Shown here one piece after another: positions 7,448 to 49,058 of a stretch of DNA of 63,234 nucleotides. Position 1 is the stretch's first letter; every line of letters begins with the position of its first letter. The stretch lies in the IMG/VR virus record IMGVR_UViG_3300045988_163731, one strand, 5' to 3'. The DNA is from a virus. The notes beneath the pieces were generated by a model. The model was not told the DNA's origin. It made no database searches and saw only the letters and a program-made list of their open reading frames with translations. The position numbers and the translations under genes were made by a program.

Positions 7448-8668
7448 ATGACATATTTTATTATAGCGGTGTTGGTTGTAGCTTGTATCGTTATGCACAA
7501 CGACAAAGAGAGATGGCGAGAAGGACACCTGAAAAAACAAGATTTAATAAAAAAAGGGGAAGACTGTTATTATCAAGCGGTCGTGGACGCTAGAAAAATA
7601 AAAGATGAAACTAAAAGAGCAAAAGAACAGATATTGTTTTTAGCAAACAGAGAAGCCAATCTGATAAAGGAAGAGAACAAAAAGAAGATTGCAGATATAG
7701 AGGAAGAACGGAATTTGCTCACGGCTGCAAAAACAGCAGCTATAAAAGATTTTCCAGTGCTTGCTACAATAATAGCAGATTATGAAAATGCCAAAGACCT
7801 TGCAATTGAAAATAATCTTAGATATAAAGACAGGCCAGCGGTAAAGGCTGCTGATGAAGTCAAGAAGATTAGAGGAGAAAAAAGAATACTCATTGTAGAA
7901 AATCACGCATATAAATGGGAGCTGCTGCATTTAAAAAAGCTTTTGCCGTGGCTTGAAGATATTGAGGAAGAAGCGATAACACCAGTCCACGACTATATAA
8001 ATGCAAACTTTGCAGAAAATGATTCTGCTGGATTCTGGCTAACACCTGATGAGTATATGAGATTGCGGAGTACAGAAAAATATCAGCTTGCCCTTAAGAG
8101 ATACTGCACCCGGCATAAATCAAACCAGGAAATAGGCACCGAGTATGAGCGTTTTATAGGCTATATGTACGAAACTAAGGGATATAAGGTTGAGTTTGTA
8201 GGCATAGAAAAAGGCTTAGAGGATTTAGGAAGAGATTTGATTTGTACCAATGACAAAGAAGTTCTCATAGTGCAATGTAAATGCTGGTCGAATAAGAAGA
8301 ACAAAGTTATTCGTGAGAAATACATCAACCAATTATGCGGTACGGCTTTAATGTACAAAATAAAGCATCCAGAATGTAAAAAAACTATAAAGCCTGTGTT
8401 TGTTTCAACAGTGCCATATAGCGATATGGCAAAAGAATTTGCCAAATGCCTAAACATACAATGTATTGTTCAGCCCTTAGAGAAGTACCCAATGGTAAAA
8501 TGTAACATAAATCTCTCGACTAATGAGAAAATATACCATTTGCCATTTGACCAGCAATATGACAAATGCGTTATAAATAAAAAGCTGGGTGAATGTTATG
8601 TAATGACGGTACAAGAGGCAGAAAATAAAGGTTTTAGACGTGCCAGGCGTTGGCTCGGACATAATTAA
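7448..8668 (+). CDS. Membrane-anchored protein with a coiled-coil and an Mrr-cat-like (PD-(D/E)xK) restriction-endonuclease domain
   Basis: N-terminal TM span FIIAVLVVACIVM. The block FIGYMYETKGYKVEFVG...DLGRDLICTNDKEVLIVQCKCWS matches the Mrr catalytic motif (G.D.G.DL...VQCK). Confidence 0.65.
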   Translation: MTYFIIAVLVVACIVMHNDKERWREGHLKKQDLIKKGEDCYYQAVVDARKIKDETKRAKEQILFLANREANLIKEENKKKIADIEEERNLLTAAKTAAIKDFPVLATIIADYENAKDLAIENNLRYKDRPAVKAADEVKKIRGEKRILIVENHAYKWELLHLKKLLPWLEDIEEEAITPVHDYINANFAENDSAGFWLTPDEYMRLRSTEKYQLALKRYCTRHKSNQEIGTEYERFIGYMYETKGYKVEFVGIEKGLEDLGRDLICTNDKEVLIVQCKCWSNKKNKVIREKYINQLCGTALMYKIKHPECKKTIKPVFVSTVPYSDMAKEFAKCLNIQCIVQPLEKYPMVKCNINLSTNEKIYHLPFDQQYDKCVINKKLGECYVMTVQEAENKGFRRARRWLGHN

Positions 8669-10918: not shown

Positions 10919-10970
10919 TTTGAAAACCTCCTAAATAAAATTGCTGTTTCAATAAGCAATAACGCTTATT

Positions 10971-11007
10971 TTGATTACATAGTAGCACGGTATTTTTGAC
11001 TTGTCAA
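10971..11007 (-). promoter_or_regulatory. Leftward sigma-A-type promoter (TTGACA-17-TACTAT) with an embedded TTGAC-TT-GTCAA palindrome. Copy 1 of a 37-bp repeat.
   Basis: Exact 37-mer TTGATTACATAGTAGCACGGTATTTTTGACTTGTCAA, present again at 12037-12073. Confidence 0.55.
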
Positions 11008-11041
11008 GCATTTTTTATTATAAAATAAGTTTTTTTGCTTA

Positions 11042-11949: not shown

Positions 11950-12036
11950 TTTATACCATCCTTTCTGCCTCCCAGATGGAGGCCTACAAGCCTATAAAAT
12001 AAACTTTAAAGCTGATTTATAAGCTATATTGTTTAT

Positions 12037-12073
12037 CTTGATTACATAGTAGCACGGTATTTTTGACTTGTCA
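12037..12073 (-). promoter_or_regulatory. Copy 2 of the 37-bp leftward promoter/operator repeat
   Basis: Identical 37-mer to 10971-11007. Confidence 0.55.
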
Positions 12074-12399
12074 ATGCTTTTTTGAAAATATTTTGATGTT
12101 CGTTTTTACCTGCATAGCTACAAAGTCAGATGTAGCAAAGGATTGATGGATATATAAAAACATAAAAAAAGAACACAAAAGTATAGACAAAAAAGCTATT
12201 TTAAGGTATAATATTTGTATAGTGATATAGTATATGCAAAGGTCTGGAGAGTGTGCCAGGCCTTTTCTTTTGTCCTTTTACAAATAATTCATTGTACAAA
12301 TTTAATGATTTTTGCTGTATAAATAGAACAAAGATAAAAAATATCCCGACTTAATACAAAAACTATCAAATAATTTGTATAATGACTTAGAAATATAGT

Positions 12400-12840: not shown

Positions 12841-13213
12841 AATGACATCATAGAGAAGTTTGAGCATTGCCGGTGACATCATAGAGAATCTTTTGGGCTA
12901 TCTAAACAAACTATCCGAAAATCTATTCCTTTTTAATCTGATAGACAAGGATATTCATTATTGTTAATTCAAAAGTATAAATTATTGAAATGAAAGCAAA
13001 GTAGCAAATCTGGAGCTTATTTAAAAGGAAGATAGATGCATAGAACACACTATATAATTTAATGGATATGTTCTGCTATTTTGTCCACCTGCTGCAAACT
13101 GTCAAAAAGTCAAACAATATAATGGTAGATTTTGCCAATGCTGAACGGATTCAATCCATTGATATGACTAGGCTAGAGGGCTTTTCTCTTTACCTCCTAT
13201 AACTGTCAATTAT

Positions 13214-13292
13214 CGGATGTAATAGGCGCGTAGGCAGGCGTGGCGCGCTCGTGTGTAGGCGCGGTCGCTCGCCCCCAGGCGCGTAGTTAATT
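13214..13292. other. GC-rich island with reiterated (T)AGGCGCG motifs. Candidate terminase recognition (cos/pac) site upstream of terS.
   Basis: TAGGCGCGTAGGCAGGCGTGGCGCGCTCGTGTGTAGGCGCGGTCGCTCGCCCCCAGGCGCGTAG sits in an otherwise AT-rich 1.4-kb non-coding region, about 200 bp before terS. Confidence 0.35.
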
Positions 13293-13487
13293 GTTGTTCT
13301 AATAATGTCATATACACATAAAAAACAGGGGGTAGGGGGTGGGGTAGGGACTACCTATATTTACCCCTGTCATTTACCCTATGGAGTCCCCCTCTCGCAC
13401 AAAATATGCAAAATTATAAACTTTGCTTCCATAAAAAACACTAAAGTCAAAAAGATAAATGGAAAGCAAGCAAAGGAGGTGATTTAA

Positions 13488-14042
13488 GTGGCGTTGCTAA
13501 ATGATATGAATTTGGAACTAGGAGTAAATGGCCTAAAGAAAAATGGAGTCATGCCTGAACCAGAGCGAGCTAAAAAAGTTTACGGATTGACTTATAAGAA
13601 GTATCTGTTTTGTAAGTACTATCACGAAACACAGAACGCCACACGGGCAGCAGAAATGGCTGGCTACAAAGGAACCTCCAGAACGGCATTAGGAGTTAAG
13701 GGGAGTAAGCTACTTGACGAAAAGGGCGTATCTGACTACCTGACACATTTGGAAAGCATACAGGAAGCAAAGATGGCTAAAAATGGTATATATAGTCTGT
13801 CCATGACAGAGGTATTTGATATGTATGTAGACTTAGCTCAAAGCACTGAGAATGACAGTGTAAAGAGAGCTGCGTTGGCTGATATGACAAAGATACTAGG
13901 CGGATTTGCTCCAAAGGAAGTGAATATCACCCAGGACATAAATATCAGCAATCAGTTACAGGAAGCTAGGCAGAGGCAGATAGAGTACGCTCACAAGCGC
14001 CTAGCGATGAACACAATAGATGTAAAGGCAAGGGAGTGTTAG
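13488..14042 (+). CDS. terS: Terminase small subunit (Terminase_2/P27-type), GTG start
   Basis: LTYKKYLFCKYYHETQNATRAAEMAGYKGTSRTALGVKGSKLL matches the terS family signature. RBS AAAGGAGGTGA. Confidence 0.85.
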   Translation: MALLNDMNLELGVNGLKKNGVMPEPERAKKVYGLTYKKYLFCKYYHETQNATRAAEMAGYKGTSRTALGVKGSKLLDEKGVSDYLTHLESIQEAKMAKNGIYSLSMTEVFDMYVDLAQSTENDSVKRAALADMTKILGGFAPKEVNITQDINISNQLQEARQRQIEYAHKRLAMNTIDVKAREC

Positions 14043-14262
14043 GCTGCTGTTGTGCGCCAGTGACCTAACATTTTTTAAGGCGGGTAACACCGCCTTTTTA
14101 TATGTCTGCTATGAGGTAATGGCCTTATAGTAGGCTGAGTTTTTCATAATCCTCCTTTTCTTTTATTAGCGGTGTGTCTTTATGGCATACCGCCTTTTTT
14201 ATGGGCGATTCCAGAGTGTGTTGGTGCAACTCCAACTAGCCCTATTATTACGAGGTGAGCAC

Positions 14263-16743
14263 ATGAGTAATCCACAAAGTGAATTAGTAGAGTTCTTGGC
14301 ACAATTTACCCACGACCCATTAGGATTTGTGTATTCCTGCTTTCCTTGGGGTAAGGATGAATTGGCGAATTACAAAGGTCCCGATGCCTGGCAGATTGAG
14401 ATACTTGAAAAGCTAGGTAAAGGCCTCATAAATATTGAAGAAGCAATAAGGCTGGCTGTGGCATCAGGTCATGGGATTGGAAAGGCCAGTACAGATGTTC
14501 TGATTATTGATACGCCTAATGGCAAGCAAAGATGGGGCGATTTAAAAGTAGGTGACTATGTATTTGGGGCTGATGGCAAGCCAGTAAAAATAATTGGCAC
14601 TAGAAAATATAAAGCCATACCTTTCTACAGGGTAACGTTTGATGATGATAGCTATTGCGAGGTTTCCAGCGGCCACTTGTGGAACGTAAAGAACCGCAAT
14701 GACAGGAGAACTGGTAAAGGCTGGCGAACTCTTTCCACTTTGGAAATAGTTGAGGCTGGGGTGCTTCGCAAATCAGGTTACAAGCCTAATGGTGAACAAC
14801 ATTGGGCAAAACAATGGGAGATACCAATACAGGGTGCAGCAGAATTTCCACACAAGGAAACTTTGCTACACCCTTATTTATTAGGGGTATGGTTAGGAGA
14901 TGGCAGCAGAGAACAGCCTACCTACACAAAGCCGTATCCAGAAATTAGGAATAAACTAAAAGCCCTTGGATATAGTGTTAAGCTCTGTAAAGATGACAAA
15001 CGAAACTACATAAAAGGCATAAAACATTTGCTTGTAGATAAGGTGTTTTCCTGCCGTAGCTTTAATCGTTATATCCCTGACGAATACAAATACAACGATG
15101 TTGCTAGTCGTAAAGAGCTGCTATGCGGCTTGCTTGATACTGATGGAGAGATAAACAAAAAAAGTTCTATTCTCTATTCCACCACCAGCAAGCAGTTAGC
15201 AGAAGATGTCCTGTGGTTGGTTCGTTCATTAGGTGGTAAAGCCCAATTGCAGCCAACTGACAAGCAGGGCTGGTACTATGACGACAACCGCAATAGGGTA
15301 AATTGTAGGTTTTGTTATCGCATAACAATGACTTTGCCATTTAACCCTTTCTCAATAAAACATCGCAAGGAAAGGTACAAGCCTAATATTGAGGATAGAT
15401 ACCGCAAGAGGTTCATTGCTTCTATTGAGCCAATAGGCAATGCCGATGGAATGTGCATTACAGTCGATAAGCCTGATGGTTTGTATCTGACTAACGACTT
15501 CATAGTGACTCATAATTCCTGCTTGGTTTCATGGATAGTTCTATGGGCTGTATCTACGCATGAGGATACTAGAGGCATTGTTACAGCCAATACAGAGACA
15601 CAGCTAAGGTCTAAGACTTGGCCAGAGGTGTCTAAGTGGTATCGTATGTTTATAGGCCGTGAGCTGTTTGAGATAACAGCTACAGCCATCTTTTCTGCTG
15701 ATAAAGAGCATGAAAAGACTTGGCGGATAGACGCTATCCCTTGGAGCAAGGAAAACCCCGAGGCATTTGCTGGACTTCATAACCAGGGCAAAAGGATACT
15801 TGTTATCTTCGACGAGGCTTCCGCCATTATCGACGATATATGGGAAGTTACCGAGGGTGCTATGACTGACGCCCACACTGAAATAATCTGGTGTGCTTTC
15901 GGGAATCCTACCCGTAATACTGGCAGGTTCTATGAGTGCTTCCATAGTAAGCACCGCACATGGGATACAAAACAGATTGATTCCAGAACGGTAGCCATTT
16001 CTAACAAAAAGGTACTTAACCAATGGGTAGCGGAATATGGCGAGGATTCTGACTTCGTAAAGGTCAGAGTACGCGGATTGTTCCCAGATGCAGCTGCCAA
16101 TCAGCTGATACCTAGAGGTGTGGTGCAGGAAGCTAGGGAAAGACGACCTGAGAAGAAGCAGTACTCCTTTTCTCCAGTAATCATCGGTGTGGACCCTGCA
16201 TGGACAGGGCAGGATATGTTGGCTATTGTAATGAGGCAGGGGATATATTCTCATGTTTTAAAAACTCTCACAAAGAACGACAATGACCTTGCTGTAGCCA
16301 GAATGATAGCAGGTTTCCAAGACCAATACGGAGCTAGTGCTGTGTTCATAGATATGGGCTATGGTACAGGTATTTACTCTGCCGGCAAGGATATGGGGCG
16401 TGATAATTGGCGTATTGTTCAGTTTGGTGGTAAATCAGACAAAGAAGAATACGTCAACAAGCGTGCTGAAATGTGGTTCGCTATGAAAGAGTGGTTGGTT
16501 AATGGTGGCTGCATTGATAATGAAGCATTAGCTGACGAGCTGGTAGCTCCAGAGGCTTTTGTTAATCGCTATGGTAAACACCAGTTGGAAAGTAAAGACG
16601 ATATGAAGCGCCGTGGCGTACAATCCCCGAATATGGCGGATGCCTTGGCATTGACCTTTGCTTTCCCTGTGCAGAGCGGTTGGAGTCATAAATATAAGAA
16701 ATATAGAAAAGCTGGCAAGATAGCCAAATGGGGTGCACTGTAG
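14263..16743 (+). CDS. terL: Terminase large subunit, interrupted by an in-frame intein in the Walker-A loop
   Basis: RBS GAGGTGAG before the ATG at 14263. Walker-A ASGHGIGK is split from SCLVSWIVLW by about 344 aa. The downstream nuclease region is typical of terL. Confidence 0.9.
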   Translation: MSNPQSELVEFLAQFTHDPLGFVYSCFPWGKDELANYKGPDAWQIEILEKLGKGLINIEEAIRLAVASGHGIGKASTDVLIIDTPNGKQRWGDLKVGDYVFGADGKPVKIIGTRKYKAIPFYRVTFDDDSYCEVSSGHLWNVKNRNDRRTGKGWRTLSTLEIVEAGVLRKSGYKPNGEQHWAKQWEIPIQGAAEFPHKETLLHPYLLGVWLGDGSREQPTYTKPYPEIRNKLKALGYSVKLCKDDKRNYIKGIKHLLVDKVFSCRSFNRYIPDEYKYNDVASRKELLCGLLDTDGEINKKSSILYSTTSKQLAEDVLWLVRSLGGKAQLQPTDKQGWYYDDNRNRVNCRFCYRITMTLPFNPFSIKHRKERYKPNIEDRYRKRFIASIEPIGNADGMCITVDKPDGLYLTNDFIVTHNSCLVSWIVLWAVSTHEDTRGIVTANTETQLRSKTWPEVSKWYRMFIGRELFEITATAIFSADKEHEKTWRIDAIPWSKENPEAFAGLHNQGKRILVIFDEASAIIDDIWEVTEGAMTDAHTEIIWCAFGNPTRNTGRFYECFHSKHRTWDTKQIDSRTVAISNKKVLNQWVAEYGEDSDFVKVRVRGLFPDAAANQLIPRGVVQEARERRPEKKQYSFSPVIIGVDPAWTGQDMLAIVMRQGIYSHVLKTLTKNDNDLAVARMIAGFQDQYGASAVFIDMGYGTGIYSAGKDMGRDNWRIVQFGGKSDKEEYVNKRAEMWFAMKEWLVNGGCIDNEALADELVAPEAFVNRYGKHQLESKDDMKRRGVQSPNMADALALTFAFPVQSGWSHKYKKYRKAGKIAKWGAL
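14485..15516 (+). mobile_element. LAGLIDADG homing-endonuclease intein inside terL (N-terminal boundary approximate)
   Basis: Ends with ...IVTHN followed by S(+1). Two LAGLIDADG motifs: LLGVWLGDGS and LLCGLLDTDGE. Block-A-like STDVLIIDTPNG at the start. Confidence 0.8.
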
Positions 16744-16757
16744 AGAGGAGGAGAGCT

Positions 16758-18956
16758 ATGGAGATAACAGAGGGGTTAGAGATTCTGCAAGGCAGTATAA
16801 AGCAGCCTAGACAGGAAGTGTCTCTAAAAACCCTAAAGAAAAAGGAAAAAGAAAAAATCATGGCTGCTTACAAGCGAAGTCGTGATTCTGCGGAGAAATT
16901 CTATCAAGGCTCAATAGAGCCGTCCTTGATACGGAGGAAGAAAATCTATGACGCTCCCAAAGAATTTTTCAGAAAGAAGTTTCCAAAAATATCTGAGTTA
17001 TCCGATTGGATTAGCCGTGATGTTAAGACCACCATAGATTGGATGTTACCATCTATCATGGAAGTTTTTATTGGCACCGACGACCCTTGCGATATTAAAG
17101 GGCAGTCACTACAGGATGATATAGCAGCCAAAAAGCTACAGTCCATTGTGAAGTACCAGATAAACAAAAAGAATGACTATTTCAGATTCCTCTATTCTTT
17201 CATCAAAGAGGGATTGATTACTAACCTGGGAGTGGCCAAAGTTTACTGGGAGCGGGACGAGACCAGAAATGAAATGGAAGTCATGGTGGATAGTTCCAAT
17301 CTGGACCAATTCTTACAGCTGGAGCAGATGGGGAAAATCGAAATCAAGGAAATGACTATCATAGATGGGCTTGCAGCTATCATTAAGTATGATGAAATAA
17401 AGACTCATTTTAATAACCCTGTTATTGAGAACATGAGTCCGTCAGAACTTCGCTTCACTCCCGATGGGCACACCTTGGCTGAAAGCAAATTTGTAGCCCA
17501 GCGCAAAATGGTCAAAGGAAGCTACCTGAAAAGCAAAGAGCTAGAGGGTGTGTTTCAAGATGTTGATAAAGCCATTAAGGAAGCTGACGACCGCAAGCGT
17601 ACAGGCTACGACCAGTACACCAATAAGTATTTTGATTCCTATGGCAATTTCCTAAACGATGATGATAATGCTTCTAAGGACTTAGTTCTCTATGAGGCAT
17701 ATCTTGATGTTGACTACAACAATGATGGAATATTGGAAAAGGTCATTGTTCATGCTGTTGGCGATGTGCCAATCGCAATACAAGAAAACACCTTTAGAAG
17801 TGTTCCGTTCTTTATCTTTGCCCCTGAGCCTGACCCATATATCCCGTATGGAGAGACTTCATATGCTGATACCTTGGAACAGTTACAGGATTTGAAAACT
17901 GTGCTGATAAGGCAGGTTATCATTGCGGTGGCCAAGAATAATCGACCACAGATGTTCGTTGCAGAACATAAGGTAGACACTGACGCTCTCATTGATGGTG
18001 ATGAGCTTATACCCGTAAGGGACGGGAGTCCAGCGGAGGCTGTCATGTACAGCCCACATATTCCTCTGGACCCTATCACAATGACTCTTGTACAGTACGC
18101 ACAGAATGACATTGAAAGTCAGAGTGGCAGTACAAGGTATAATCAGGGACTTGACTCAAACAGCCTAAACAAAACCGCAAGTGGTATCAACGCTGTAATG
18201 GGTGCTGCTGACAAGAAAATGAAGCTGATAGCACGTATCTTTGCCGAATGTGCATGGGTGCCTATTATCAAGCATATCATTAAGCTGGACCAGCAATTCT
18301 TGGACCCTTATCAGCAGTTTAGGCTAAATGATGAAATGGTCAATATCTCCCCAGAGGAGCTAGATATTGACTATGACTTGGTTGTTAATACAGGCCAGGG
18401 CGCCGCCACAAAAGAAGCCCAAATGAATTATTTAATCATGATAATGCAGCAGCTTTATCCTGCCTTGCAGAATATGGGTGTTGCTACTGAAAAATCATGG
18501 TATGAGACGGCTAAGGACCTGTTGGAGAAAATGGGAATCCGCAATGTGCAGAATTATCTCATTGACCCAGATAGCGACCAGTGGAAGCAGGCACAGGTAC
18601 AGAAACAGCAGGCAGCAGAGCAGGCTGAACAGAAACAGCTTGATACTATGCTAATGCTCCAAAAGGTTAAATTGGAATCTGAATTGCAGAGACAGTCAAT
18701 ACCTCGCATGAATATGACCTCTAATTATAGGGATTTGCCTGTAGAAGCCAAGCAAAGCTATATAGACCAATACTTAAAAGAAAGAGTCCCTGAACCTGAT
18801 ATTTGGGTAAAGGAATTGATGGATGTGTTAGGAGGAAGTTATGCCAAGAGGAATAGCACGCTCCCGAACGGAGCAAAAGAAAGAGAACCTCGCCAAGGTC
18901 AAGAAAGCGGGGCAGGCAGAGGAACTGTTAGCAATGTTATCAGAACTCAAAGCTGA
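16758..18956 (+). CDS. Portal protein (assignment based on position and size)
   Basis: About 730 aa, immediately after terL. RBS GAGAGGAGGAG before the ATG at 16758. C-terminal Q-rich helical region. Confidence 0.6.
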   Translation: MEITEGLEILQGSIKQPRQEVSLKTLKKKEKEKIMAAYKRSRDSAEKFYQGSIEPSLIRRKKIYDAPKEFFRKKFPKISELSDWISRDVKTTIDWMLPSIMEVFIGTDDPCDIKGQSLQDDIAAKKLQSIVKYQINKKNDYFRFLYSFIKEGLITNLGVAKVYWERDETRNEMEVMVDSSNLDQFLQLEQMGKIEIKEMTIIDGLAAIIKYDEIKTHFNNPVIENMSPSELRFTPDGHTLAESKFVAQRKMVKGSYLKSKELEGVFQDVDKAIKEADDRKRTGYDQYTNKYFDSYGNFLNDDDNASKDLVLYEAYLDVDYNNDGILEKVIVHAVGDVPIAIQENTFRSVPFFIFAPEPDPYIPYGETSYADTLEQLQDLKTVLIRQVIIAVAKNNRPQMFVAEHKVDTDALIDGDELIPVRDGSPAEAVMYSPHIPLDPITMTLVQYAQNDIESQSGSTRYNQGLDSNSLNKTASGINAVMGAADKKMKLIARIFAECAWVPIIKHIIKLDQQFLDPYQQFRLNDEMVNISPEELDIDYDLVVNTGQGAATKEAQMNYLIMIMQQLYPALQNMGVATEKSWYETAKDLLEKMGIRNVQNYLIDPDSDQWKQAQVQKQQAAEQAEQKQLDTMLMLQKVKLESELQRQSIPRMNMTSNYRDLPVEAKQSYIDQYLKERVPEPDIWVKELMDVLGGSYAKRNSTLPNGAKEREPRQGQESGAGRGTVSNVIRTQS

Positions 18957-29323: not shown

Positions 29324-32300
29324 ATGGCATACTCTAAATATGGTTTATCATTCAAAAATTTTACAGATAGTTATGGTGAATGGGAAGCTAATGGCGGTGT
29401 AGAACAGGCCAACAAAGCCATAGATTTTAAGAATCTACAAAACAATAGCTTTAATGTGCGTGGTTTACCAGGAGGCACTTTTGGCCAATCAGTAATAGAT
29501 AGTGCTCTTGGAGCAGCAGGCAATATTGATGATTTTCTTGGTGGGCCAACAGGACTTGGAGATTATGCCAATAACTATGTCACTGCACAGGAAATGGCTA
29601 TGGGCGAAAAGCCTGAAGCTGATTTCTCTTGGGACTATCTTATAAATGGCCTACCTCGTGATACCGGTAATCTGATAGGCTCTGGAATTGGTTTGGCTGC
29701 ACCTATCGCAGCTGCAACATTGGCAGCACCATTTGTTGGCGTTGGTGCTACTGCTGCTGGTATAGGTGGTGCACTTGCTGGAGCTGGACTGGAGTCTATG
29801 GCTGAGGGTGGTCAAAAAATGCGTGATTCCTTAGCCAATGGTGACTCTCTGGAAACAGCGCAGGATAAAGCAAGGACTGTAGCAGGCGAAAATATGGCGT
29901 TGCTTGCGCCTACAAACATTTTAGGACTGGGAGCGTTAAAGAAAGTAGGGCAGGGATTAAAGACTGCATATAATGGCGGTAAAGCCGTCTCTGCTACTGG
30001 TGGTGCATTAGCAAACTATCCTAAGTTATCACAGGCAGTTGACTTTGCAAAAGGTGCTGGCTGGGCAGGCCTTGGAGCGATGAACGAAGGTGCACAGGAA
30101 GCATGGCAGCAGGGTATTCAAGACAGCGTTGAGCCTGATACTGATTGGGGCATTTTGCCTTGGAATTGGAACGACGAACAGACAGAGGCTTTTGAATCCA
30201 CTATTGGGCCTACAGCTCTTATGGCTGGTGCTGGCGGTGGTGCTAGATTGGCAGCCCGAAAGCTGGGAATGTCTGATGTGCCACAGGTTGATACAGCTCC
30301 ACAGGTTAACAACAACCTCTTCGGTGCTGGCACTGCTGAAATTTCCACACAGGGAGCTGATATTGACGAGCAGGTAGCACACTTGAAAGACGGGTATCAG
30401 TCTGTTATTCCACAGGTTGCAGGTGTGCTGGTTAATGACTTTGGCATTGAGGGTGCTCAAATCTCTAGTGGTTTTAGAACCCGTGAACACAACAGGGAAG
30501 TAGGCGGTGTAGAGAACTCCAACCATGTTGGCGATGGTGAACATGGCGACGCTTTGGACATTGTTCTGCCTGATGGTGTTTCTGCTGAAACAGCAGAAGC
30601 AATCAAACAGAGATTTGAGAACAGTGGTGTATTTGACGAGGTATTGTTCCATGACGCTGGCAGTGGCTACCACCTGCATTTAGGCGGACTGAAAACAGAT
30701 AACATCGGCAACAGCTATGGCTCTTACTCCGGTGATGCTGATGTGGATTCTGCTATCAATGAAATGGCTGAGAAGTACAATCTTGACCCTGCACTATTGG
30801 CAGCAATAGCAGAGCAGGAAAGCGGATTCAATCAGTCTGCACAGTCAGGGGCAGGCGCAATGGGCATTATGCAGTTAATGCCTGACACTGCCGAGGGGCT
30901 AGGAGTGGACCCTAGCGACCTCCGAGGCAACTTAGAGGGTGGAGCAAAATATCTCCGTCAGATGTTGGATAAGTACGATGGTGATGTAGAAAAGGCCCTT
31001 GCTGCTTACAATGCTGGCCCTGGTAGTCTTGATAGCGTAAATGGGGATATTTCCCAGCTGTCAGGTGAAACACAGAAGTATATTCCCTCTGTCATGGAGC
31101 GGTATAATAAGTTCAAAAACAAATCAGGCGGTGGCATTAGCAGTAGTGGCAATATCCTTGATTGGGACTCTACCAATGAGGACTTTTCCAAGCTGGACTT
31201 CTTCCCTAAAGATGGTGAGCAGTCACAGGGGACAGTCAATGAGTTCCTTGAAAACCTTGCCAAGCTGGAGGAAAGTGACGATAAGGCCACCAAGGAAAAG
31301 GGCAGACAGGCACAGGATATTCTACAGCAGTATGGTGATGATACTGAAAAGCTGACAGAAAAGGCTAAGGAATTAGGCTATCAGCAGATAGTAGACCCAG
31401 CAGAGGTACATGGCCGTATTCCTATGAGGCGCATTGTGTCTACAGCTCTGGACAAGGGGCAGGTAACATTTGCCACCAAAAAGGCTGCTGATATTTTCGC
31501 TTCTTCTCCTATCGGCCAGACTATGGAACGGCAGGGGAAAACATTTAAGGTTACTGACAATTTCAAGATGAATGAGCAGGTCAACGCTATTAGTCAGCAG
31601 GTTTATTCTGACAATACAGCTAGGACCAAAACTGTCAAAAATGGTGTTATGGCGGATGCTGCGGCTGCAAATAGAGAACTAAATGGGCAGGCAAGACCTC
31701 CTATCCAGCAAAACGATTCTGTGCTTACTGATGAGGATAGGGGTAGACTCATCAGTGTTATGCCTAATCTGCCACCACAGGTACAACAGCAAATACAGGA
31801 AGCTCTTGCTGAGAACGACATAAAGTCTGTACGCCAGTTGCTTGATGAAGCGACTAATAGCACACCTCTAAACGCTGAAACAGATATTGAAAAAGCAAAA
31901 GCTATAACGAGAGCCTTACTGCAAAATCCAGAAGCAACAACCAGCTGGGACGGCAACGGGGCTGTTAGAACTGCTGCTATAGAGGGATTTATCAACAGCA
32001 ATAATTTAGATGGACTGAATCGTGCTAACAAATACATGGCTCAAAACCTGCGTGACAAAGGCATCAACCCGCTGGAGGTATTGAATCAGAATATAGAAAA
32101 GCCAAACACTTTACCAGCTGTGCAGGGGGAGCGTATGCCATCTACCGATGTACAGCGTGAAGAACCTGCCATTGAGGGAACAGTGGAAGATACTGTCATT
32201 ACTCCTCCGTATAATGGCAATGAGGTAAAAGTTAATAAAGGCGAGCATAACTACTATAAGTGGTTAAGACAAAATGGCTTTGCCCAGCAGGATAGGGCAC

Positions 32301-35300
32301 CAGAAGGCGCACCACAGCTAGCAGAAAACAAAGAATCCACTGGCACGAATAGTGAAAATCAGACCAATTCCCCAACAAGCAAAAATACTGAAATAGAACT
32401 TGCAGATGGATATTCAACTGAATCTGGCAAACCTCTTAATGAAGCAAATGAGCGAGAGTTCATTGTGAAACCTGATGGGAGCAAGGATTTTGGTGAGATT
32501 TCAAGCGATATTTCAGAAGCTACTCATGGTGCGTTAAAATCAGCTCCTATACGGCTACAAGTAGGCAATGAAGTTTTTGGGTATATTCATCTGCTTAAAC
32601 ATGCTAGCCAAATGAAACAAAAAGGATATGATGTGATGGGTTACATCAATCATATCCTAAATAATTTCAATCAAATATACAGCCAGCAAAGTGATAAAAA
32701 GCCAAACCGTTTTGTATTATATTGCAAAGATGATTCAAAAGGCTTTATGCCTATAGACTTGGAATTTGAAAAAGGAAGCGATGATTACTATACGATAGTA
32801 TCTGCAATGCCACATAGAGCAAAAATAAAAGGAACATTGCTCTATGATGGGAGTGCAAATCCATCTATCGCTACCACCGGCGATACCCTTCTTGCAGAGG
32901 CTGACAATAAAGGTGGAGTCAGCAACACTGCGAACACGCATGGGAAGAACAATGTTCCTTCTTCTACCTCTACTATACCACAGAATCAGGATAAGGGCAA
33001 TGAAAATCCTAATGCTTCTAATGAGCCAATGCGTAAGGAACTTATAGAGCAGGCTGCTGCCAATGAAGATACCTGGGTAAATAGCAAGAAAAGCGAGCTT
33101 CACCTTGAAGATGATAACGATACTGTTGTCAAACTCACTCCACAGGAACTGAAATATTATCAAGACTTGATAAAAAAAGGTGTGGTAGCAAAGCCTGAAC
33201 TGTACGAGGAAGCCCAAGAAGATGTTGGCGAAATGGACGACAATGTGGAGATGTCTAAAGAGCAAAAGCAACTCTATGACGAAAGTAGCGACGATAGGGA
33301 TATGCCAAGTGTTGAAGATGAGGCAGAACCTACAGCTGATGAACCACGCACTAAATATAGTAGGGAGAAAAGTCCTGTTGACAAAAAAAAGCCTACTCAC
33401 CATAATGTAGAGTGTAGGGATGTAAAGGAACAAGCGAAACGTTATGTCCAGAGCAGACTTGATAACGGTGCATTAAAAACACTCAAACCGACTGATGATG
33501 TAAATACTGCTATTGAAAAGATTATTGCTCCTATAAAAAGGGAAGTTGATAATCAAGCTGCTAGGTATTTAGAAACTGGCCATGAGCCAGAATATTATCA
33601 GGCTCGTTTAAATATGATTAATTATTACAAGCAACTTGTTGATGAAATAAGGAGGGATTTCAATGCAGGTGATAGACAGTCTGATGTCTACGGACGAGTT
33701 ATTAACGATACTTGGTTCAAACAATCCGCAGGAGAGGGAAGCAACCTCCGAAAAAGTGTTCAAAAGAGAAATGCAGAGATTGAAACACGAGAAGATGAAA
33801 ACTCAGGAGTAAATTCATCCTCTGCAAAAACGGGCAAGACATATGAGAATTATAACCCTAAAACACAAAAGGTATTAGATATGATGTATAAGCACTCTTC
33901 ACGTGATAAGAGTGCTTTTTCTATTGAGCCTATAAATCCACATTCTGCCGAAGCTCAAAAGGAGAACGGCAACAGCAACACTGAACTTGATAGGTTGCCA
34001 AAGGTGCCTATTGCCAAGCTCCGCCAGAGCGAGCAAAGGATTGTCAGATTTGGTAAAGCTATTGGTGTGCCTGTCCATTTTGTTGAGTCAAACGAAACGA
34101 CTAATCGTGGTGTATTCACCCACAATGGTGAAATCTTCATTAACCGCAAGGCAACGGTTCCAGCTCATTCTATCTTTGTACATGAGTTTGTGCATTGGCT
34201 AAAGGCCAGCCCTGAAAATGCTGGTGCATATGATGTGCTTCATGCGTGCTTGGAGAACTCTAGCGGGCTTTTCAATGAGGCACGAATCAATAAGTATCGG
34301 AATAAAATTTTCGATGGCAATAAGATGACTGACGAGGAAATAGTGGAGGAGATTATCTGCGACGCTATGACACAAACCGAGTCAGCCGAAAAGTTAATGC
34401 GTGCTGTTAATAATGTTGATGGTAGCCTTGTCACTAGGATTGCTGGCTGTCTAAAGGCTATGTGGGATAAGTTCTGCGAGTACATGAATTTCAAGCAGCA
34501 TAAAATGAGCAATGAACAGCAGCTGCCAAATGAGTTATCAGTAGCAGAGTTCCAGAGAGCTGATACAGCTTTCAACAAAATTCTGATGAATCTGAAAAAC
34601 GATAATGGCGAGCCTGTATTCCATCGGGTAGGCACAGAGCTTTTGCTGCGTGACAACAACGCAAAGCCTGCAGATACATACCAGCTAAACCCTATCAGCT
34701 ATACTTATGCAGTTGCATACTCCAAGGAAAATAAGGACAATAAGCCTATTGATGAAAAGGCAAAAAACATTCAAAATGAGTATGAGGAGTTATCCGATGA
34801 AGATAAAAAAATCATTGATGACAAAGTGCAAAAACGGCTAGCTGTATTTCAGAATACAGTAGCTGAGAAGATAAGGCAGTCATTCTTAGAACGCTTTACT
34901 GACAGTGATAAGAATTTATCGATTCAGGAATTAAAGAACGATAGTAGAGAACGTGAATGTTTACGAGTATTGTATGAACAATCAAGTAGATATAGTGGCA
35001 AGGTAAGTAATTATAAGGAAGCCCTCCATACATTAGTACCGTGGTATGATACCAATGGGAAAAGTAGGGACCAATTAGTAGAGGATTATAATAGGTTTAA
35101 ACGGCTAGCAGAGGAGATGTTGAATTATGGAACATACACCTTTACCGAACTCTGTAGACAATTTTGCGGACGCGGCAGAGATAATGTTATTAAAAATTCT
35201 GGAAGAAATGTCGAATCAGACCGCGACCTCGAACGCAGAACAAAAGCAACCAAAGGCTTAAGGCAACTGTTCTTAGAGCAGGAGCTAAATAATCTAAAAC

Positions 35301-38300
35301 GTGACAAGCACTCTGAACAGGGTGCTTTTTCTAATGGCAACAAATATTCCCGTGGTGTTGACCTTAGCCCATCGACTGATGGTGTGGCTATTGCTGCCAG
35401 AGCCAACAATAATCTTGTGGCCAACATGAAAGGCATTGTCAAAAAGGCAAATGCCAAGTTTAATCCATTCCACCATGAGGAGCTGGAAAACCTGCGTATT
35501 GATAAGCGTGACGAGAAGAAAGACCTTAACCTTATTGAGTATCAGTTTGTTTCCCCGACCAGGGAGAGCAAGAAGTACAAAGTTATCCAGCCGTTTGTTA
35601 TGAAAGGCAAGCAGGCTATGGCCAAGCAGGAAAAGCTAAGGTTCGAGTTCAATGAGGGCATGAACGAACTTGATAGGCTGCTAGGCTGGCGAGAGGGATT
35701 CCATCGGAATGACCCTAAGTTCAAAGAGCGAAAGGAAGCCCTGAACGAAATACTGTTAAAGGGCGACCTAGAGAGAAAGAATTTCACCAATAAAGAATTA
35801 ATTGAGGCTGGCTATGACGCTGAAACCATCAAGGGCTACCGCAAAATGAGAGCACTCCTGGATAAGGCTTGGAAACTTGCCAATGACATCAAGTCAAGAA
35901 TCAAGTATCAGAGCATAACCAGCTCCACCCTGCGCCGTGCCGAGGCTGATTTTGCAGACTTAAAGGATAAGAACCCATTTGCTGAAATCATCAGCAAGGT
36001 ACACAATCCTGATGGAACTGTGACCATTAACTACAAGGCACCTCATGTAAGGCGTGTGGCAAAGCAGACTGTGCTGCCATCCGAGCTGGAAAACCTCCGC
36101 AAGAACAAAGATGTTCACATTGTGGAAACCACCCAGAGCCTAAAGGGGACTACACAGGTAACTTACTATCAGCGTGAAGCAGGCATGGGCAAATTAGAGG
36201 GATATATCCCTCATATCTTCCACGGCTGGTATGTCTGCAAGGTAGACAAGGACGGCAAGGCCATTGTAGACAAGGACGGCAATGTAGCTATGGATAATAT
36301 CATGACTACAGCCAATTCCCTGTCAGAAGCAGCCAAGCTAGGGCGTGAGCTTGCCAAGGAAAACCCTAACGCTAACTATCGTGTTGTTCCACAGACGTTC
36401 AGCGCACCTGGGGCACAAGAACAGGCTATTGTCATGGGTGACTTTGACTATGCCAAGATAGTAGGCAAAGTGGCTGACTCTATGTCCATGAGTATAACTG
36501 ACGCTCAGGCAATGCTTGATAACACTGTCAAGATGAAAAATCGTGGCAGGTTCTATGGCTATGCTAAACAGCGTAAGGGCTTCAAGGGATTCGAGCAGAA
36601 TGTTTACCTTGCCACTATGAAGTATTTCAACCAGACTGCACGCTATGCAGCTATGGACTCTTTCAAGAGGGATTCCATTAGTATGTATAACCGCATTTTT
36701 GGAGCCTTTGACGATGAGAATGTAACAAAGAGAAGTGCTATGGCCAAGTGGACCAAGCAGTATATCAGTGATATGAATGGTACTCCAACTTGGATTGAGA
36801 AGATGATAAATAACACCTTGCACAATTTCGGGTTGGGCGAGGAGAGAGCAGGGGGCAGACCTGCCTTGTGGTTACAGCAAAAAATCTTCACATATCCTAT
36901 GACCATTCTAAAGCTGGGTGTATTTAACCCGTCCTCTGCCCTGCTGAACCTCACACAGCTCTTTAACCTTTATGGAGCTATGGGAGAAAAGGTACTTAGC
37001 CCACAGGCCTACCAGCGACTCCTACACAAAGGATTTGCTGATACATTCAGGGCAATGAACAATAAGGATAGTGAGCTGGGCAAGTTGCTATGGAAAGACC
37101 TTGGCCTTGATTACCAGATTGGCATGGATATAGCCTCTGGTTATTCCAATGCAGAGGTCAACAACCTTGCTTCCCTGCGAGGTTTTGCAGGTCGTTTGGC
37201 TGGCAAGTCTATGTATTTGTTCAGACAGACCGATGCCTTTGCCAGAGGTGTTACCTTACTGACAGCCTATAACAAGGCGTTAGACGAGGGTAAGAGCAAA
37301 GCAGAGGCCATTGAGTATGCCAAGGAGATAAACGACAAGGTAAACTTTGATGGCTCTGTTGCCGACGAGCCTACCATATTCAGAGCACTTGGCCCAATAT
37401 CCAAGGTTTTCTTGCAGTTCAAAAAATACCCTGTTAAGCAGTTAGAATTGTTCCAGGACTTCTACCTTGATGGCAGGGAACTTGGACTCAACCGCAAGCA
37501 GTCATGGATGCGAATGGCGAAATACATGGCACCATATATGGCAATGTCAGGCATGATGGGTATTCCGTTTGTCAGCCTAGCTAACGGATTGTTCTCCTAC
37601 CTTACAGGTATTTTTATCGGTGATGATGATTGGGATTGGGAGAAGAAAATTAAACAGTTCATGATTACGGAGTTTGGCGAGGACTGTCCTTTGACTCAGT
37701 GGTGGTTGTATGGTGCAGGTTCTTTCATTGGGCTAAACCTTGGCAGCCGTGTAGGTGTTGGCGATTTCTTAGGCTCCGACTCTTACAACTCCGCTGACGG
37801 ATTGGCTGGCCTTGCGTGGAATCAGACCACTCTTGGCTCCACTGTTAATCAGGTGCTAAAGCAGATGTCTTACCGCAATTATGCGGAAGCTCTAAAGGCT
37901 GTTAATCCTACTATGGGTAACATCGTACAGGCATACAAGGGCGAGGTTAGAACCACTAGAGGCCGTATGAAGTATCAGTATCAGAATATGGCTGAAAGAA
38001 TGTGGCGGGCCATTGGCTTTACTCCACTCAATGAAACTTTGGCTGGCGACCTTGCAAGCAATGAGTATGCTGAAAAGCAGGAGCAGACCAAGGCAAAGCA
38101 GGAAGCTGTAGATGATTTCTTAGCAAATCCAAGCAGTGAAAATGCTGACAGACTGAATGAGCTGGGTGTTACTCCAAAATCCTTGGAGAATGAATCAGCC
38201 AGACGGACAATGAACCGCCATCAGCTGAATGAGTTAGCTAAGGAAAAGGAAGCAGCAAAGAAAAAGAAGAAACCAAAGACATACTCTGCCAGCGATTACT

Positions 38301-38317
38301 TAAAAGCTGTGCAATAA
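29324..38317 (+). CDS. Giant (2997 aa) multidomain virion-associated protein. Carries a Gly-rich hydrophobic N-terminus, a Peptidase_M15-like domain, an SLT lytic-transglycosylase domain, and a central HExxH zincin-like motif.
   Basis: RBS AAGGAGGAAAG before the ATG. The M15 motifs are SGFRTREHN...HVGDGEHGDALDIV. The SLT motif is AIAEQESGFNQSAQSGAGAMGIMQLMPDTA. The zincin motif is IFVHEFVHWL. The ORF is unbroken. Confidence 0.8.
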   Translation: MAYSKYGLSFKNFTDSYGEWEANGGVEQANKAIDFKNLQNNSFNVRGLPGGTFGQSVIDSALGAAGNIDDFLGGPTGLGDYANNYVTAQEMAMGEKPEADFSWDYLINGLPRDTGNLIGSGIGLAAPIAAATLAAPFVGVGATAAGIGGALAGAGLESMAEGGQKMRDSLANGDSLETAQDKARTVAGENMALLAPTNILGLGALKKVGQGLKTAYNGGKAVSATGGALANYPKLSQAVDFAKGAGWAGLGAMNEGAQEAWQQGIQDSVEPDTDWGILPWNWNDEQTEAFESTIGPTALMAGAGGGARLAARKLGMSDVPQVDTAPQVNNNLFGAGTAEISTQGADIDEQVAHLKDGYQSVIPQVAGVLVNDFGIEGAQISSGFRTREHNREVGGVENSNHVGDGEHGDALDIVLPDGVSAETAEAIKQRFENSGVFDEVLFHDAGSGYHLHLGGLKTDNIGNSYGSYSGDADVDSAINEMAEKYNLDPALLAAIAEQESGFNQSAQSGAGAMGIMQLMPDTAEGLGVDPSDLRGNLEGGAKYLRQMLDKYDGDVEKALAAYNAGPGSLDSVNGDISQLSGETQKYIPSVMERYNKFKNKSGGGISSSGNILDWDSTNEDFSKLDFFPKDGEQSQGTVNEFLENLAKLEESDDKATKEKGRQAQDILQQYGDDTEKLTEKAKELGYQQIVDPAEVHGRIPMRRIVSTALDKGQVTFATKKAADIFASSPIGQTMERQGKTFKVTDNFKMNEQVNAISQQVYSDNTARTKTVKNGVMADAAAANRELNGQARPPIQQNDSVLTDEDRGRLISVMPNLPPQVQQQIQEALAENDIKSVRQLLDEATNSTPLNAETDIEKAKAITRALLQNPEATTSWDGNGAVRTAAIEGFINSNNLDGLNRANKYMAQNLRDKGINPLEVLNQNIEKPNTLPAVQGERMPSTDVQREEPAIEGTVEDTVITPPYNGNEVKVNKGEHNYYKWLRQNGFAQQDRAPEGAPQLAENKESTGTNSENQTNSPTSKNTEIELADGYSTESGKPLNEANEREFIVKPDGSKDFGEISSDISEATHGALKSAPIRLQVGNEVFGYIHLLKHASQMKQKGYDVMGYINHILNNFNQIYSQQSDKKPNRFVLYCKDDSKGFMPIDLEFEKGSDDYYTIVSAMPHRAKIKGTLLYDGSANPSIATTGDTLLAEADNKGGVSNTANTHGKNNVPSSTSTIPQNQDKGNENPNASNEPMRKELIEQAAANEDTWVNSKKSELHLEDDNDTVVKLTPQELKYYQDLIKKGVVAKPELYEEAQEDVGEMDDNVEMSKEQKQLYDESSDDRDMPSVEDEAEPTADEPRTKYSREKSPVDKKKPTHHNVECRDVKEQAKRYVQSRLDNGALKTLKPTDDVNTAIEKIIAPIKREVDNQAARYLETGHEPEYYQARLNMINYYKQLVDEIRRDFNAGDRQSDVYGRVINDTWFKQSAGEGSNLRKSVQKRNAEIETREDENSGVNSSSAKTGKTYENYNPKTQKVLDMMYKHSSRDKSAFSIEPINPHSAEAQKENGNSNTELDRLPKVPIAKLRQSEQRIVRFGKAIGVPVHFVESNETTNRGVFTHNGEIFINRKATVPAHSIFVHEFVHWLKASPENAGAYDVLHACLENSSGLFNEARINKYRNKIFDGNKMTDEEIVEEIICDAMTQTESAEKLMRAVNNVDGSLVTRIAGCLKAMWDKFCEYMNFKQHKMSNEQQLPNELSVAEFQRADTAFNKILMNLKNDNGEPVFHRVGTELLLRDNNAKPADTYQLNPISYTYAVAYSKENKDNKPIDEKAKNIQNEYEELSDEDKKIIDDKVQKRLAVFQNTVAEKIRQSFLERFTDSDKNLSIQELKNDSRERECLRVLYEQSSRYSGKVSNYKEALHTLVPWYDTNGKSRDQLVEDYNRFKRLAEEMLNYGTYTFTELCRQFCGRGRDNVIKNSGRNVESDRDLERRTKATKGLRQLFLEQELNNLKRDKHSEQGAFSNGNKYSRGVDLSPSTDGVAIAARANNNLVANMKGIVKKANAKFNPFHHEELENLRIDKRDEKKDLNLIEYQFVSPTRESKKYKVIQPFVMKGKQAMAKQEKLRFEFNEGMNELDRLLGWREGFHRNDPKFKERKEALNEILLKGDLERKNFTNKELIEAGYDAETIKGYRKMRALLDKAWKLANDIKSRIKYQSITSSTLRRAEADFADLKDKNPFAEIISKVHNPDGTVTINYKAPHVRRVAKQTVLPSELENLRKNKDVHIVETTQSLKGTTQVTYYQREAGMGKLEGYIPHIFHGWYVCKVDKDGKAIVDKDGNVAMDNIMTTANSLSEAAKLGRELAKENPNANYRVVPQTFSAPGAQEQAIVMGDFDYAKIVGKVADSMSMSITDAQAMLDNTVKMKNRGRFYGYAKQRKGFKGFEQNVYLATMKYFNQTARYAAMDSFKRDSISMYNRIFGAFDDENVTKRSAMAKWTKQYISDMNGTPTWIEKMINNTLHNFGLGEERAGGRPALWLQQKIFTYPMTILKLGVFNPSSALLNLTQLFNLYGAMGEKVLSPQAYQRLLHKGFADTFRAMNNKDSELGKLLWKDLGLDYQIGMDIASGYSNAEVNNLASLRGFAGRLAGKSMYLFRQTDAFARGVTLLTAYNKALDEGKSKAEAIEYAKEINDKVNFDGSVADEPTIFRALGPISKVFLQFKKYPVKQLELFQDFYLDGRELGLNRKQSWMRMAKYMAPYMAMSGMMGIPFVSLANGLFSYLTGIFIGDDDWDWEKKIKQFMITEFGEDCPLTQWWLYGAGSFIGLNLGSRVGVGDFLGSDSYNSADGLAGLAWNQTTLGSTVNQVLKQMSYRNYAEALKAVNPTMGNIVQAYKGEVRTTRGRMKYQYQNMAERMWRAIGFTPLNETLAGDLASNEYAEKQEQTKAKQEAVDDFLANPSSENADRLNELGVTPKSLENESARRTMNRHQLNELAKEKEAAKKKKKPKTYSASDYLKAVQ

Positions 38318-47672: not shown

Positions 47673-48542
47673 ATGTCAACTGATGCAAGTATTATTGGCG
47701 TTGAAAAAGGCCAATACAATGTACCGACAAAAGAAGCTGGTAAATATGTAACTGTTCACTGGGAAACAGAGGTAGGCCAGCTTACAGACCTCACAGGTAT
47801 TTCTCATAACGGCATCTACCGGGGTAAAGACCTGACTAACTATTATGCCAGCGGGGAAATGTCCAAGGCTATCGCAAATGGCAGCTTTAAGGATATCTAT
47901 ATCGGTGACTATATCACCAAGAATATCGTTGTTGGCGGTACTACCTATCAGGTTAAGTGGGAAGTTGCTGATATAGATTACTTCTATAAGTCCGGTGATG
48001 CTTCTTGTGATACTCACCATGTAGTCCTGCTTCCATCAAAGGCTGTGTTTGTTAATATTAAGATGAATGATACCGACACCACTAAAGGCGGCTATGCAGG
48101 CAGCAAAATGTGGAAAGAAACCATTCCTGCTGTTGTTACCGGTATCAAGGCCGCGTTTGGTGCAGACCATGTGGTAAAGCATAGAGAATTGCTGACTATC
48201 AAAGTTTCTGCCACTGCTCAGTCTGTTGCTGGAGCTGGTTGGACTGGCAGTAGTACAGGACAGGCTTGGGCTGATGTAGAAGCTAACATTCCGACTGAGC
48301 CTATGGTTTATGGCGGTACTGTATTTGGTTCTAGTGGATATGATGTTGGAAGTGGCGGGAAACAGTTTGCTATCTTCAGATTCAAGAAGGACTGTTATCC
48401 TGATAGAATGTGGTTTTGGCTTAGAGCGGTGGCTTCGGCGTCTAGGTTCTGCCGCGTCAGCGCTAGTGGCTTTGCGAGCTCCCACGATGCTTCTATTTCG
48501 AACTCCTCTGGCGGCTGTCGCCCGTATTTCCTGTTCCGCTAA
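47673..48542 (+). CDS. DGR target protein (putative receptor-binding protein) with a C-terminal variable region
   Basis: Its 3' 100 bp is the VR. RBS AAGGAATG before the ATG. The C-terminus RAVASASRFCRVSASGFASSHDASISNSSGGCRPY corresponds to TR-encoded IAVASASRFCNVSENGNANYNDASNSNSSGGCRP. Confidence 0.8.
   Translation: MSTDASIIGVEKGQYNVPTKEAGKYVTVHWETEVGQLTDLTGISHNGIYRGKDLTNYYASGEMSKAIANGSFKDIYIGDYITKNIVVGGTTYQVKWEVADIDYFYKSGDASCDTHHVVLLPSKAVFVNIKMNDTDTTKGGYAGSKMWKETIPAVVTGIKAAFGADHVVKHRELLTIKVSATAQSVAGAGWTGSSTGQAWADVEANIPTEPMVYGGTVFGSSGYDVGSGGKQFAIFRFKKDCYPDRMWFWLRAVASASRFCRVSASGFASSHDASISNSSGGCRPYFLFR
48425..48524 (+). repeat. DGR variable repeat (VR)
   Basis: 100 bp, 88% identical to 49059-49158. 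All 12 mismatches lie opposite TR adenines. A GC hairpin GTCGCCCC-CTTC-GTGGGGCGAC follows 24 bp downstream. Confidence 0.85.
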
Positions 48543-48596
48543 CCTTGTCGTCGCCCCCTTCGTGGGGCGACATAATCGCCATTTTTAGGAGGTAAA

Positions 48597-49037: not shown

Positions 49038-49058
49038 TTCTATAGGGTATCAGCTAAT

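Follow-up and report, generated by a model that had tools for sequence, protein, structure and literature searches.

Class 3 inteins have no N-terminal nucleophile. They carry Trp at position B:12, Cys at F:4 and Thr at G:5 (the WCT triplet), and it is the block F Cys that makes the first attack of the splicing pathway (PMC2807308, PMC5050341). Ser or Thr is usual at the +1 position, without being strictly defining (PMC2807308). The pathway was established with the DnaB intein of mycobacteriophage Bethlehem (PMC2807308). Kelley et al. (2016) described class 3 inteins in the large terminase subunit, TerL, and the position between Lys and Thr in the P-loop of mycobacteriophage TerL is a classic intein site (PMC5050341). 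A survey of actinobacteriophages counted 293 terminase inteins and found class 3 LAGLIDADG inteins almost entirely in TerL and Cas4 (bioRxiv 10.1101/2025.01.02.630785). Here we analyze the IMG/VR virus record IMGVR_UViG_3300045988_163731, a stretch of 63,234 nucleotides (nt) that is referred to in its whole length as the window. Its terL gene very probably contains a class 3 intein that harbors a nested LAGLIDADG endonuclease with two motifs and is inserted between the Lys and Ser residues of the TerL P-loop. An initial annotation of the same DNA had proposed a LAGLIDADG intein interrupting this P-loop at 14485-15516, and both the codons and the alignments with intein-free homologs reproduce these boundaries exactly.

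The insert comprises 344 amino acids (aa), from Ala1 to Asn344, and occupies positions 14485-15516 on the plus strand; its length of 1032 nt corresponds to 344 codons in frame. The distance between the Walker A fragment ASGHGIGK and the downstream SCLVSW, previously given as about 344 residues, is thus exactly that. On the upstream side the codons GGA AAG (Gly-Lys) end at 14484 and GCC (Ala) opens the insert at 14485. On the downstream side the last codons of the insert, ACT CAT AAT (Thr-His-Asn, 15508-15516), are followed by TCC at 15517-15519, which encodes Ser+1, in agreement with the end that had been read as THN followed by Ser. The insertion point therefore separates the Walker A residues Lys and Ser (GHGIGK↓S, the arrow marking the junction), and removal of the insert yields ASGHGIGKS, a canonical GxxxxGK[ST] motif.

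To place the ends, we used the conceptually spliced 482-aa TerL as a query, which retrieved thousands of homologs, and examined the best 120 clusters. In 110 of them the protein is 463-523 aa long and reads directly through GK↓S; the other ten have the insert and are 821-836 aa long. In an alignment of 17 sequences, the short proteins run as G(H/N)G(I/V)GK↓S(A/C)LV with no gap, and the long ones contain a block of 337-344 aa, always at the GK↓S point. Both an intein-free protein that is 82% identical to the extein (P0002) and the TerL of Salmonella phage epsilon15 (51%) align without gaps across the junction. The empty site can also be seen in DNA: a related, syntenic contig (L001), in which terL is followed by an SU10-type portal gene, reads GGAAAG↓AGCTGC in the context ...GGTAATGGTATCGGAAAG↓AGCTGCCTTGTGGCTTGG... 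Since the intein-free homologs and this contig read straight through the site, the ends are fixed as Lys(-1)-Ala1 and Asn344-Ser+1. The earlier observation that the insert does not begin with Cys holds, but its N-terminal junction, which had been left ambiguous between Ala and Ser, is not: the homologs place it at Ala1 (GK↓A) and not at Ser2. Taken together, an in-frame position at a conserved site, absence from close orthologs and restoration of the motif upon removal are what the sequences of an intein and its host gene are expected to display.

The remaining possibility at this junction is a class 1 intein that starts at Ser2, with the junction GKA↓S, an N-O acyl shift at Ser and the spliced product GHGIGKA-SCLV. 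Inteins with Ser1 exist, and the second residue of the insert is indeed Ser. Yet there is no intein-free homolog with an extra Ala, all of them having GK-S, and a GKA sequence would break the Walker A GK[ST]. Across ten homologous TerL inteins, position 2 varies among S, H, Q, G and L and is therefore not a conserved nucleophile, and the WCT triplet is both present and invariant. We consider a start at Ser2 scarcely credible.

No Rfam match, whether to a group I intron or to any other structured RNA, was obtained in the region 13000-17500; because of this and because the open reading frame (ORF) is uninterrupted, the insert is not an intron. The minus strand offers no plausible separate endonuclease gene: the ORFs overlapping the insert there are just 53-62 aa long, and we took these to be due to chance. 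A six-frame scan of the window with a hidden Markov model (HMM) of TerL inteins detected no second intein besides the one in terL. The GC content of the intein (41.8%), compared with 45.5% for the exteins and 41.7% for the window, is uninformative as to recent acquisition.

Could the insert be a conserved accessory domain of the terminase that is kept in the mature protein? This question had already been raised in the initial annotation, and PHROG families annotated as terminase large subunit (36964, 19299 and 15) do match the insert itself. These matches are explained by the inclusion of intein-bearing terminases in the profiles. Moreover, the segment is absent from 110 of the best 120 clusters, including proteins 90-97% identical to carriers, it separates the Lys of Walker A from the Ser, it has the fold and motifs of an endonuclease-bearing intein, and the same element recurs in PhoH, DnaB, helicases, Cas4 and other unrelated proteins. 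The probability of a retained domain is accordingly close to nil.

The fold of the insert was addressed with an AlphaFold2 model built on an alignment of 58 related inteins. The model has a mean predicted local distance difference test score (pLDDT) of 96.1 and a predicted template modeling (TM) score (pTM) of 0.92. A Foldseek search against PDB returned PI-SceI (1vde) as the top match, with an E-value of 2.3e-18 and a query TM score of 0.68, followed by other endonuclease-bearing inteins, with TliVMA, PhoVMA and PI-PfuI among the matches. The Hint part matched the class 3 DnaB inteins 6RIX and 6BS8, as well as the gp41-1 intein and the Hedgehog autoprocessing domain, and the endonuclease part matched I-DmoI. 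The model thus predicts a Hint fold for the splicing domain. Its N-terminal part, with blocks A and B, is a β-strand region in the model and spans residues ~1-109 (14485-14811, plus strand). At the sequence level, phmmer searches against PDB sequences gave class 3 DnaB inteins 6RIX, 6RIY and 6BS8 as the best matches to residues 8-69, with E-values from 1e-7 to 2e-6.

The motifs agree with this fold. The block B core SSGHLW (14665-14682) contains Ser61 (B:7), His64 (B:10, 14674-14676) and Trp66 (B:12, 14680-14682). Blocks F and G, DGMCITVDKPDGLYLTNDFIVTHN, occupy 15445-15516 and include Cys324 (F:4, 15454-15456), Thr342 (G:5, 15508-15510), His343 and Asn344 (15514-15516). Judged by its sequence, the insert has the signature expected of inteins, namely a block B (T/S)xxH motif (S61-x-x-H64) and a C-terminal His-Asn pair (H343-N344) followed by Ser, Thr or Cys, here Ser+1.

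Nested within the Hint domain is a homing endonuclease domain, the approximate limits of which (residues ~120-300, 14842-15384, plus strand) come from the secondary structure of the model. Both LAGLIDADG motifs noted initially are present: YLLGVWLGDG at 14875-14904, with the catalytic Asp139 at 14899-14901, and LLCGLLDTDG at 15118-15147, with the catalytic Asp220 at 15142-15144. In the model they form helices 130-139 and 206-220. Two Pfam families exceed their cut-offs on the insert, LAGLIDADG_3 with 30.5 bits (cut-off 22.5) and Hom_end with 31.1 bits (cut-off 21.1), the matches spanning residues 197-283 and 211-267. In the endonuclease columns of the 58 related inteins G138, D139, G140, D218, D220 and G221 are invariant. 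Helices with acidic ends, family models and fold all identify the domain as a two-motif single-chain LAGLIDADG endonuclease.

The assignment to class 3 follows from the residues at the splicing positions. Block B reads S61-S-G-H64-L-W66, block F D-G-M-C324-I-T-V and block G V-T342-H343-N344, after which comes Ser+1. Among these, H64, W66, C324, T342, H343 and N344 are invariant in the 58 related inteins. Residue 1 is Ala here and A, L or G across the ten homologous TerL inteins. When aligned with class 3 DnaB mini-inteins, the corresponding segments pair as GHLW/AHQW, MCITVD/RCVEVD and VTHN/PTHN. With a non-nucleophilic residue 1, the complete WCT triplet and Ser+1, the sequence has the attributes of class 3, and the missing Cys1 or Ser1 is explained by class 3 chemistry, which uses the block F Cys as the first nucleophile. 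Family membership likewise points to Cys324 as the obligate first nucleophile.

An Ala1 intein could also belong to class 2, in which the +1 residue itself attacks the N-terminal junction and no branched intermediate is formed at block F. Ala1 is indeed common to the KlbA inteins of this class (PMC2807308). However, class 2 inteins have Cys+1 and Asp at F:4, and archaeal KlbA inteins are the only known examples (PMC2807308); here the corresponding residues are Ser+1 and Cys. In addition, the full WCT triplet is invariant in the 58 relatives, and the closest solved relatives are class 3 inteins. A class 2 mechanism therefore seems very unlikely.

By analogy with characterized members of the family, both protein splicing and DNA cleavage would be expected to occur, and the following course of events can be proposed. 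TerL would be translated as an 826-aa precursor with a split ATP-binding loop, presumably inactive. Cys324 would attack the Lys(-1)-Ala1 peptide bond with the assistance of block B residues His64 and Trp66, generating a thioester-branched intermediate, and the N-extein would then be passed on to the hydroxyl of Ser+1. Cyclization of Asn344, helped by His343, would release the 344-aa intein, and an O-to-N acyl shift would complete a TerL of 482 aa in which the GKS P-loop is intact. The endonuclease of the free intein, through Asp139 and Asp220, would most likely cut an intein-less terL at a GGAAAG↓AGC/TCC-type site during co-infection, and repair of the break would copy the intein in.

Homing, as proposed here, would explain the patchy distribution of the intein among closely related terminases. 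We clustered the exteins by UPGMA (unweighted pair group method with arithmetic mean) on p-distances, an identity clustering and not a proper phylogeny, and in it the ten intein-bearing clusters are scattered. The nearest neighbors of several carriers are intein-free, with identities of 97% (carrier P0009 and intein-free P0004), 95% (P0048 and P0030), 92% (P0044 and P0035) and 90% (P0054 and P0047). The same sporadic occurrence is found in cultured phages: PAT1, 65FD and 66FD have a homologous intein at the same site, and epsilon15, phiV10 and many others do not. As far as the sequences tell, the pattern fits gain and loss by homing. A megablast search of terL against the phage collection gave no match because its relatives have diverged too far in nucleotide sequence; they were found by tblastn.

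A comparison with a sister contig (L004), which shares 94.7% nucleotide identity over 7.9 kb and encodes TerL exteins that are 99% identical, is of interest in this respect. Window positions 14485-14640, the first ~50 codons of the intein, diverge sharply from L004 3214-3370. The bins covering 14443-14622 contain ~39 mismatches per 180 nt, compared with 0-6 per 60 nt elsewhere. The intein starts with ASTDVLI...GTRKYKAIPFY in the window and with LHTYVLE...AEHHYKQVPMY in L004, and these start regions resemble different TerL inteins, that of P0009 in the first case and that of P0012 in the second. The divergence looks like a recombination mosaic adjoining the homing site, and the mosaic itself could have been left behind by repeated rounds of homing or recombination.

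Several observations weigh against a functional class 3 intein that spreads by homing. While the endonuclease models score above their cut-offs, a search with intein profiles leaves the splicing domain below them: Hom_end_hint reached 11.8 bits (cut-off 32.1) and TIGR01443 (intein_Cterm) 11.3 bits (cut-off 15.6), and the Intein_splicing and Hint models in Pfam/NCBIfam gave no match on the insert. Because these curated HMMs stay below threshold, the splicing domain is assigned from its PDB matches together with the predicted fold and the motifs. In addition, intein and extein identities among carriers are roughly correlated, and the distribution could in part reflect vertical descent with repeated loss and not recent homing.

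It is also conceivable that the intein has decayed and no longer splices, in which case the terL allele, and hence the genome, would be defective. Splicing of the terL intein is inferred, the sequence comes from a metagenome-type assembly, and intein pseudogenes have been documented, for example Arthrobacter Arth_1007 (PMC3196547). Against this stand the residues S61, H64, W66, C324, T342, H343, N344 and Ser+1, all of which are intact and invariant across relatives, and the uninterrupted ORF of 826 codons. Furthermore, a terminase with a split P-loop would be unable to package DNA, and yet the allele recurs in many samples, the cluster of the public gene call P0001 comprising 426 sequences, and the genome assembles as a circle. 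We therefore regard a splicing-dead intein as highly improbable, and an active class 3 intein remains our preferred reading.

Whether splicing of such an intein could serve a regulatory purpose is more speculative. A redox- or temperature-sensitive splicing switch has been proposed for DnaBi1 of M. smegmatis, a class 3 P-loop intein. By analogy, splicing in terL might be a redox- or temperature-sensitive switch that gates the appearance of active terminase, and/or the endonuclease might be a weapon against intein-less relatives in co-infection. The idea of a conditional switch stems from the lone internal Cys324 as the first nucleophile, combined with the split P-loop. On balance, we find roles of this kind rather unlikely.

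Turning to the host gene, the ORF with the insert extends without interruption over 14182-16743 on the plus strand. The most likely start is the ATG at 14263, since it is preceded by a GAGGTGA ribosome-binding site and gives the same 826-aa product as P0001. The precursor gene thus spans 14263-16743 (826 codons and a stop, with the intein in frame). According to alignments with homologs, the N-extein (74 aa, 14263-14484) ends with ASGHGIGK, the beginning of Walker A, and its residues G69, G71, G73 and K74 are invariant in the 17 aligned homologs. The C-extein (408 aa and a stop, 15517-16743) contains the rest of the ATPase domain, with a Walker B-like ILVIFDEAS, and the nuclease domain. Its first residue, Ser+1 (S419), is both the predicted second splicing nucleophile and the Ser of Walker A GK[ST], and it is invariant in 17 of 17 aligned homologs whether the intein is present or absent.

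The exteins match phrog_2, terminase large subunit, with an E-value of 1.7e-37 in a PHROG profile search and share 51% identity with the epsilon15 protein annotated as terminase large subunit. Pfam terminase models gave no significant match on the exteins, Terminase_6N reaching 14.2 bits (cut-off 22), and a search of the spliced extein against PDB sequences produced weak matches to the terminase nuclease domains of 8DKR and Sf6 gp2 (E-value 0.013). Because the PDB matches are weak, the identity of TerL rests on PHROG, epsilon15 homology and gene order. Upstream lies the gene for the small terminase subunit, terS (13488-14042, plus strand; Pfam Terminase_2, E-value 1.7e-11), and downstream the portal protein gene (16728-18956, plus strand; Pfam SU10_portal, E-value 1.7e-126). 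The order is terS, terL and SU10-type portal, with an SU10-type capsid gene further on. An ATPase with Walker A and B, a C-terminal nuclease, terS and portal neighbors and TerL homology identify the product as TerL, which by sequence belongs to the epsilon15/SU10-like podovirus terminase lineage. The genes terS and terL are separated by 220 nt, within which positions 14079-14099 read as a terminator-like hairpin, GGCGG-GTAACA-CCGCC, followed by TTTTT.

Other parts of the window have features of their own. The first and last 75 nt (1-75 and 63160-63234) are identical, suggesting a circular assembly, or a complete phage genome with terminal overlap, of ~63,159 bp. An apparent diversity-generating retroelement (DGR) is located at 47673-50490 on the plus strand. 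It consists of an ORF at 47673-48542, repeat copies at 48412-48524 and 49046-49158, and a reverse transcriptase (RT) ORF at 49297-50490 (Pfam RVT_1, E-value 1.4e-11). The 113-nt template-like repeat at 49046-49158, just upstream of the RT ORF, is 86% identical to the copy at 48412-48524, which lies at the 3′ end of the preceding ORF. At 14 of the 16 mismatches the RT-proximal copy has adenine, the hallmark of DGR adenine mutagenesis. A giant ORF of 2997 aa (29324-38317, plus strand) carries, close to the N-terminus, Peptidase_M15_3 and SLT lytic transglycosylase domains, and its product is probably a podoviral internal virion or tail protein that is ejected. A 406-aa ORF at 7448-8668 (plus strand) contains an Mrr_cat restriction endonuclease domain (E-value 3.3e-9). 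Finally, a 65-nt direct repeat (10952-11016 and 12019-12083), with 88% identity between the copies and a spacing of 1067 nt, lies where there are few long ORFs and may be a repeated regulatory or promoter element.

The terL intein has many relatives in other proteins. A search with the intein alone detected sequences of 30-57% identity inserted in PhoH (MRGR↓T), AAA_33 kinases (GCGK↓T), DEAD/ResIII helicases (GSGK↓T) and dCTP deaminase (VEGK↓S), with DnaB and other terminase families as further hosts. All complete relatives end in HN, nearly always THN, followed by S, T or, rarely, C. H-x-W and the block F Cys are present in nearly all of them, and residue 1 is non-nucleophilic in most, being mostly A, also G, L, Q, E or R, and sometimes S. 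In deposited phage genomes, 847 records contain a related intein at 24-36% identity. The hosts are terminases, helicases, DarB-like proteins and Cas4 exonucleases, and the phages include mycobacteriophages such as LittleE. As a separate observation, the intein itself is matched by several PHROG families labeled terminase large subunit, DNA primase or DnaC-like helicase loader, whose profiles therefore contain intein sequence.

The intein is of a kind already well described in phage terminases (2010, 2016), here found in a podovirus lineage. It changes no concept and will not surprise specialists, and its main value is for annotation: instead of an 826-aa terminase, terL encodes a terminase of 482 aa and what is predicted to be a class 3 intein of 344 aa. 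The Hint domain stays below the Pfam/NCBIfam cut-offs, and in deposited relatives the intein goes unannotated, as in the GenBank records of PAT1, 65FD and 66FD, which call the protein simply terminase large subunit, with no mention of an intein. A search of the literature for inteins in connection with Uetakevirus, epsilon15 or PAT1 yielded nothing relevant, and inteins in the epsilon15/SU10-like podovirus terminase lineage apparently have not been annotated before. The range of class 3 inteins in terminase P-loops, so far known mainly from actinobacteriophages, would thereby be extended to this lineage. The lineage offers many pairs with and without the intein at 90-97% extein identity, which is convenient for homing studies, and a compact endonuclease-bearing class 3 intein with Ser+1 might find minor use in protein engineering.

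Among known systems, PI-SceI, the yeast VMA1 intein, shares the combination of a Hint domain with a double-motif LAGLIDADG endonuclease, but it belongs to class 1 (Cys1, Cys+1), its host is a eukaryotic V-ATPase, and its sequence is only 13-16% identical. M. smegmatis DnaBi1 and M. chimaera DnaB-1 (6BS8, 6RIX, 6RIY; PMC6195587, PMC7664689) are, like the terL intein, class 3 P-loop insertions followed by Ser+1. They differ in being mini-inteins that have lost the endonuclease and reside in bacterial chromosomal genes, and the redox partner Cys48 of DnaBi1 corresponds to Phe in the alignment with the terL intein. The founding class 3 member, the Bethlehem DnaB intein (Tori et al. 2010, PMC2807308), is similar in lacking an N-terminal nucleophile, in having the WCT triplet at B:12, F:4 and G:5, and in combining a LAGLIDADG endonuclease and a hydroxyl +1 residue in a phage ATPase gene. 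Paired by block position, its S62, H65, W67, Cys320 and Asn341 correspond to S61, H64, W66, Cys324 and Asn344 here. Its host is a DnaB-like helicase, however, and it has Pro1 and Thr+1 in place of Ala1 and Ser+1.

The mycobacteriophage TerL inteins, including TerL1-a, likewise interrupt the ATPase domain, with the invariant P-loop Lys↓Thr/Ser as one common site (PMC5050341), a comparison that concerns the site and not the intein class of TerL1-a. Their hosts are actinophage terminases of the Terminase_1 and Terminase_6 families, and the intein identity is only ~30%. The closest cultured counterpart is found in Salmonella virus PAT1 and in 65FD and 66FD (Uetakevirus; MT261384, MT580116 and MT580117), where extein and intein are both homologous and the site is the same (GHGIGK↓A...IVTHN↓S). 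The PAT1 intein-bearing terminase, at L002 2474-4924 (MT261384.1 23824-26274), has SSGHLW and THN along with the block F Cys. The whole precursors are 44% identical and the inteins ~36%, the PAT1 intein having a shorter endonuclease region.

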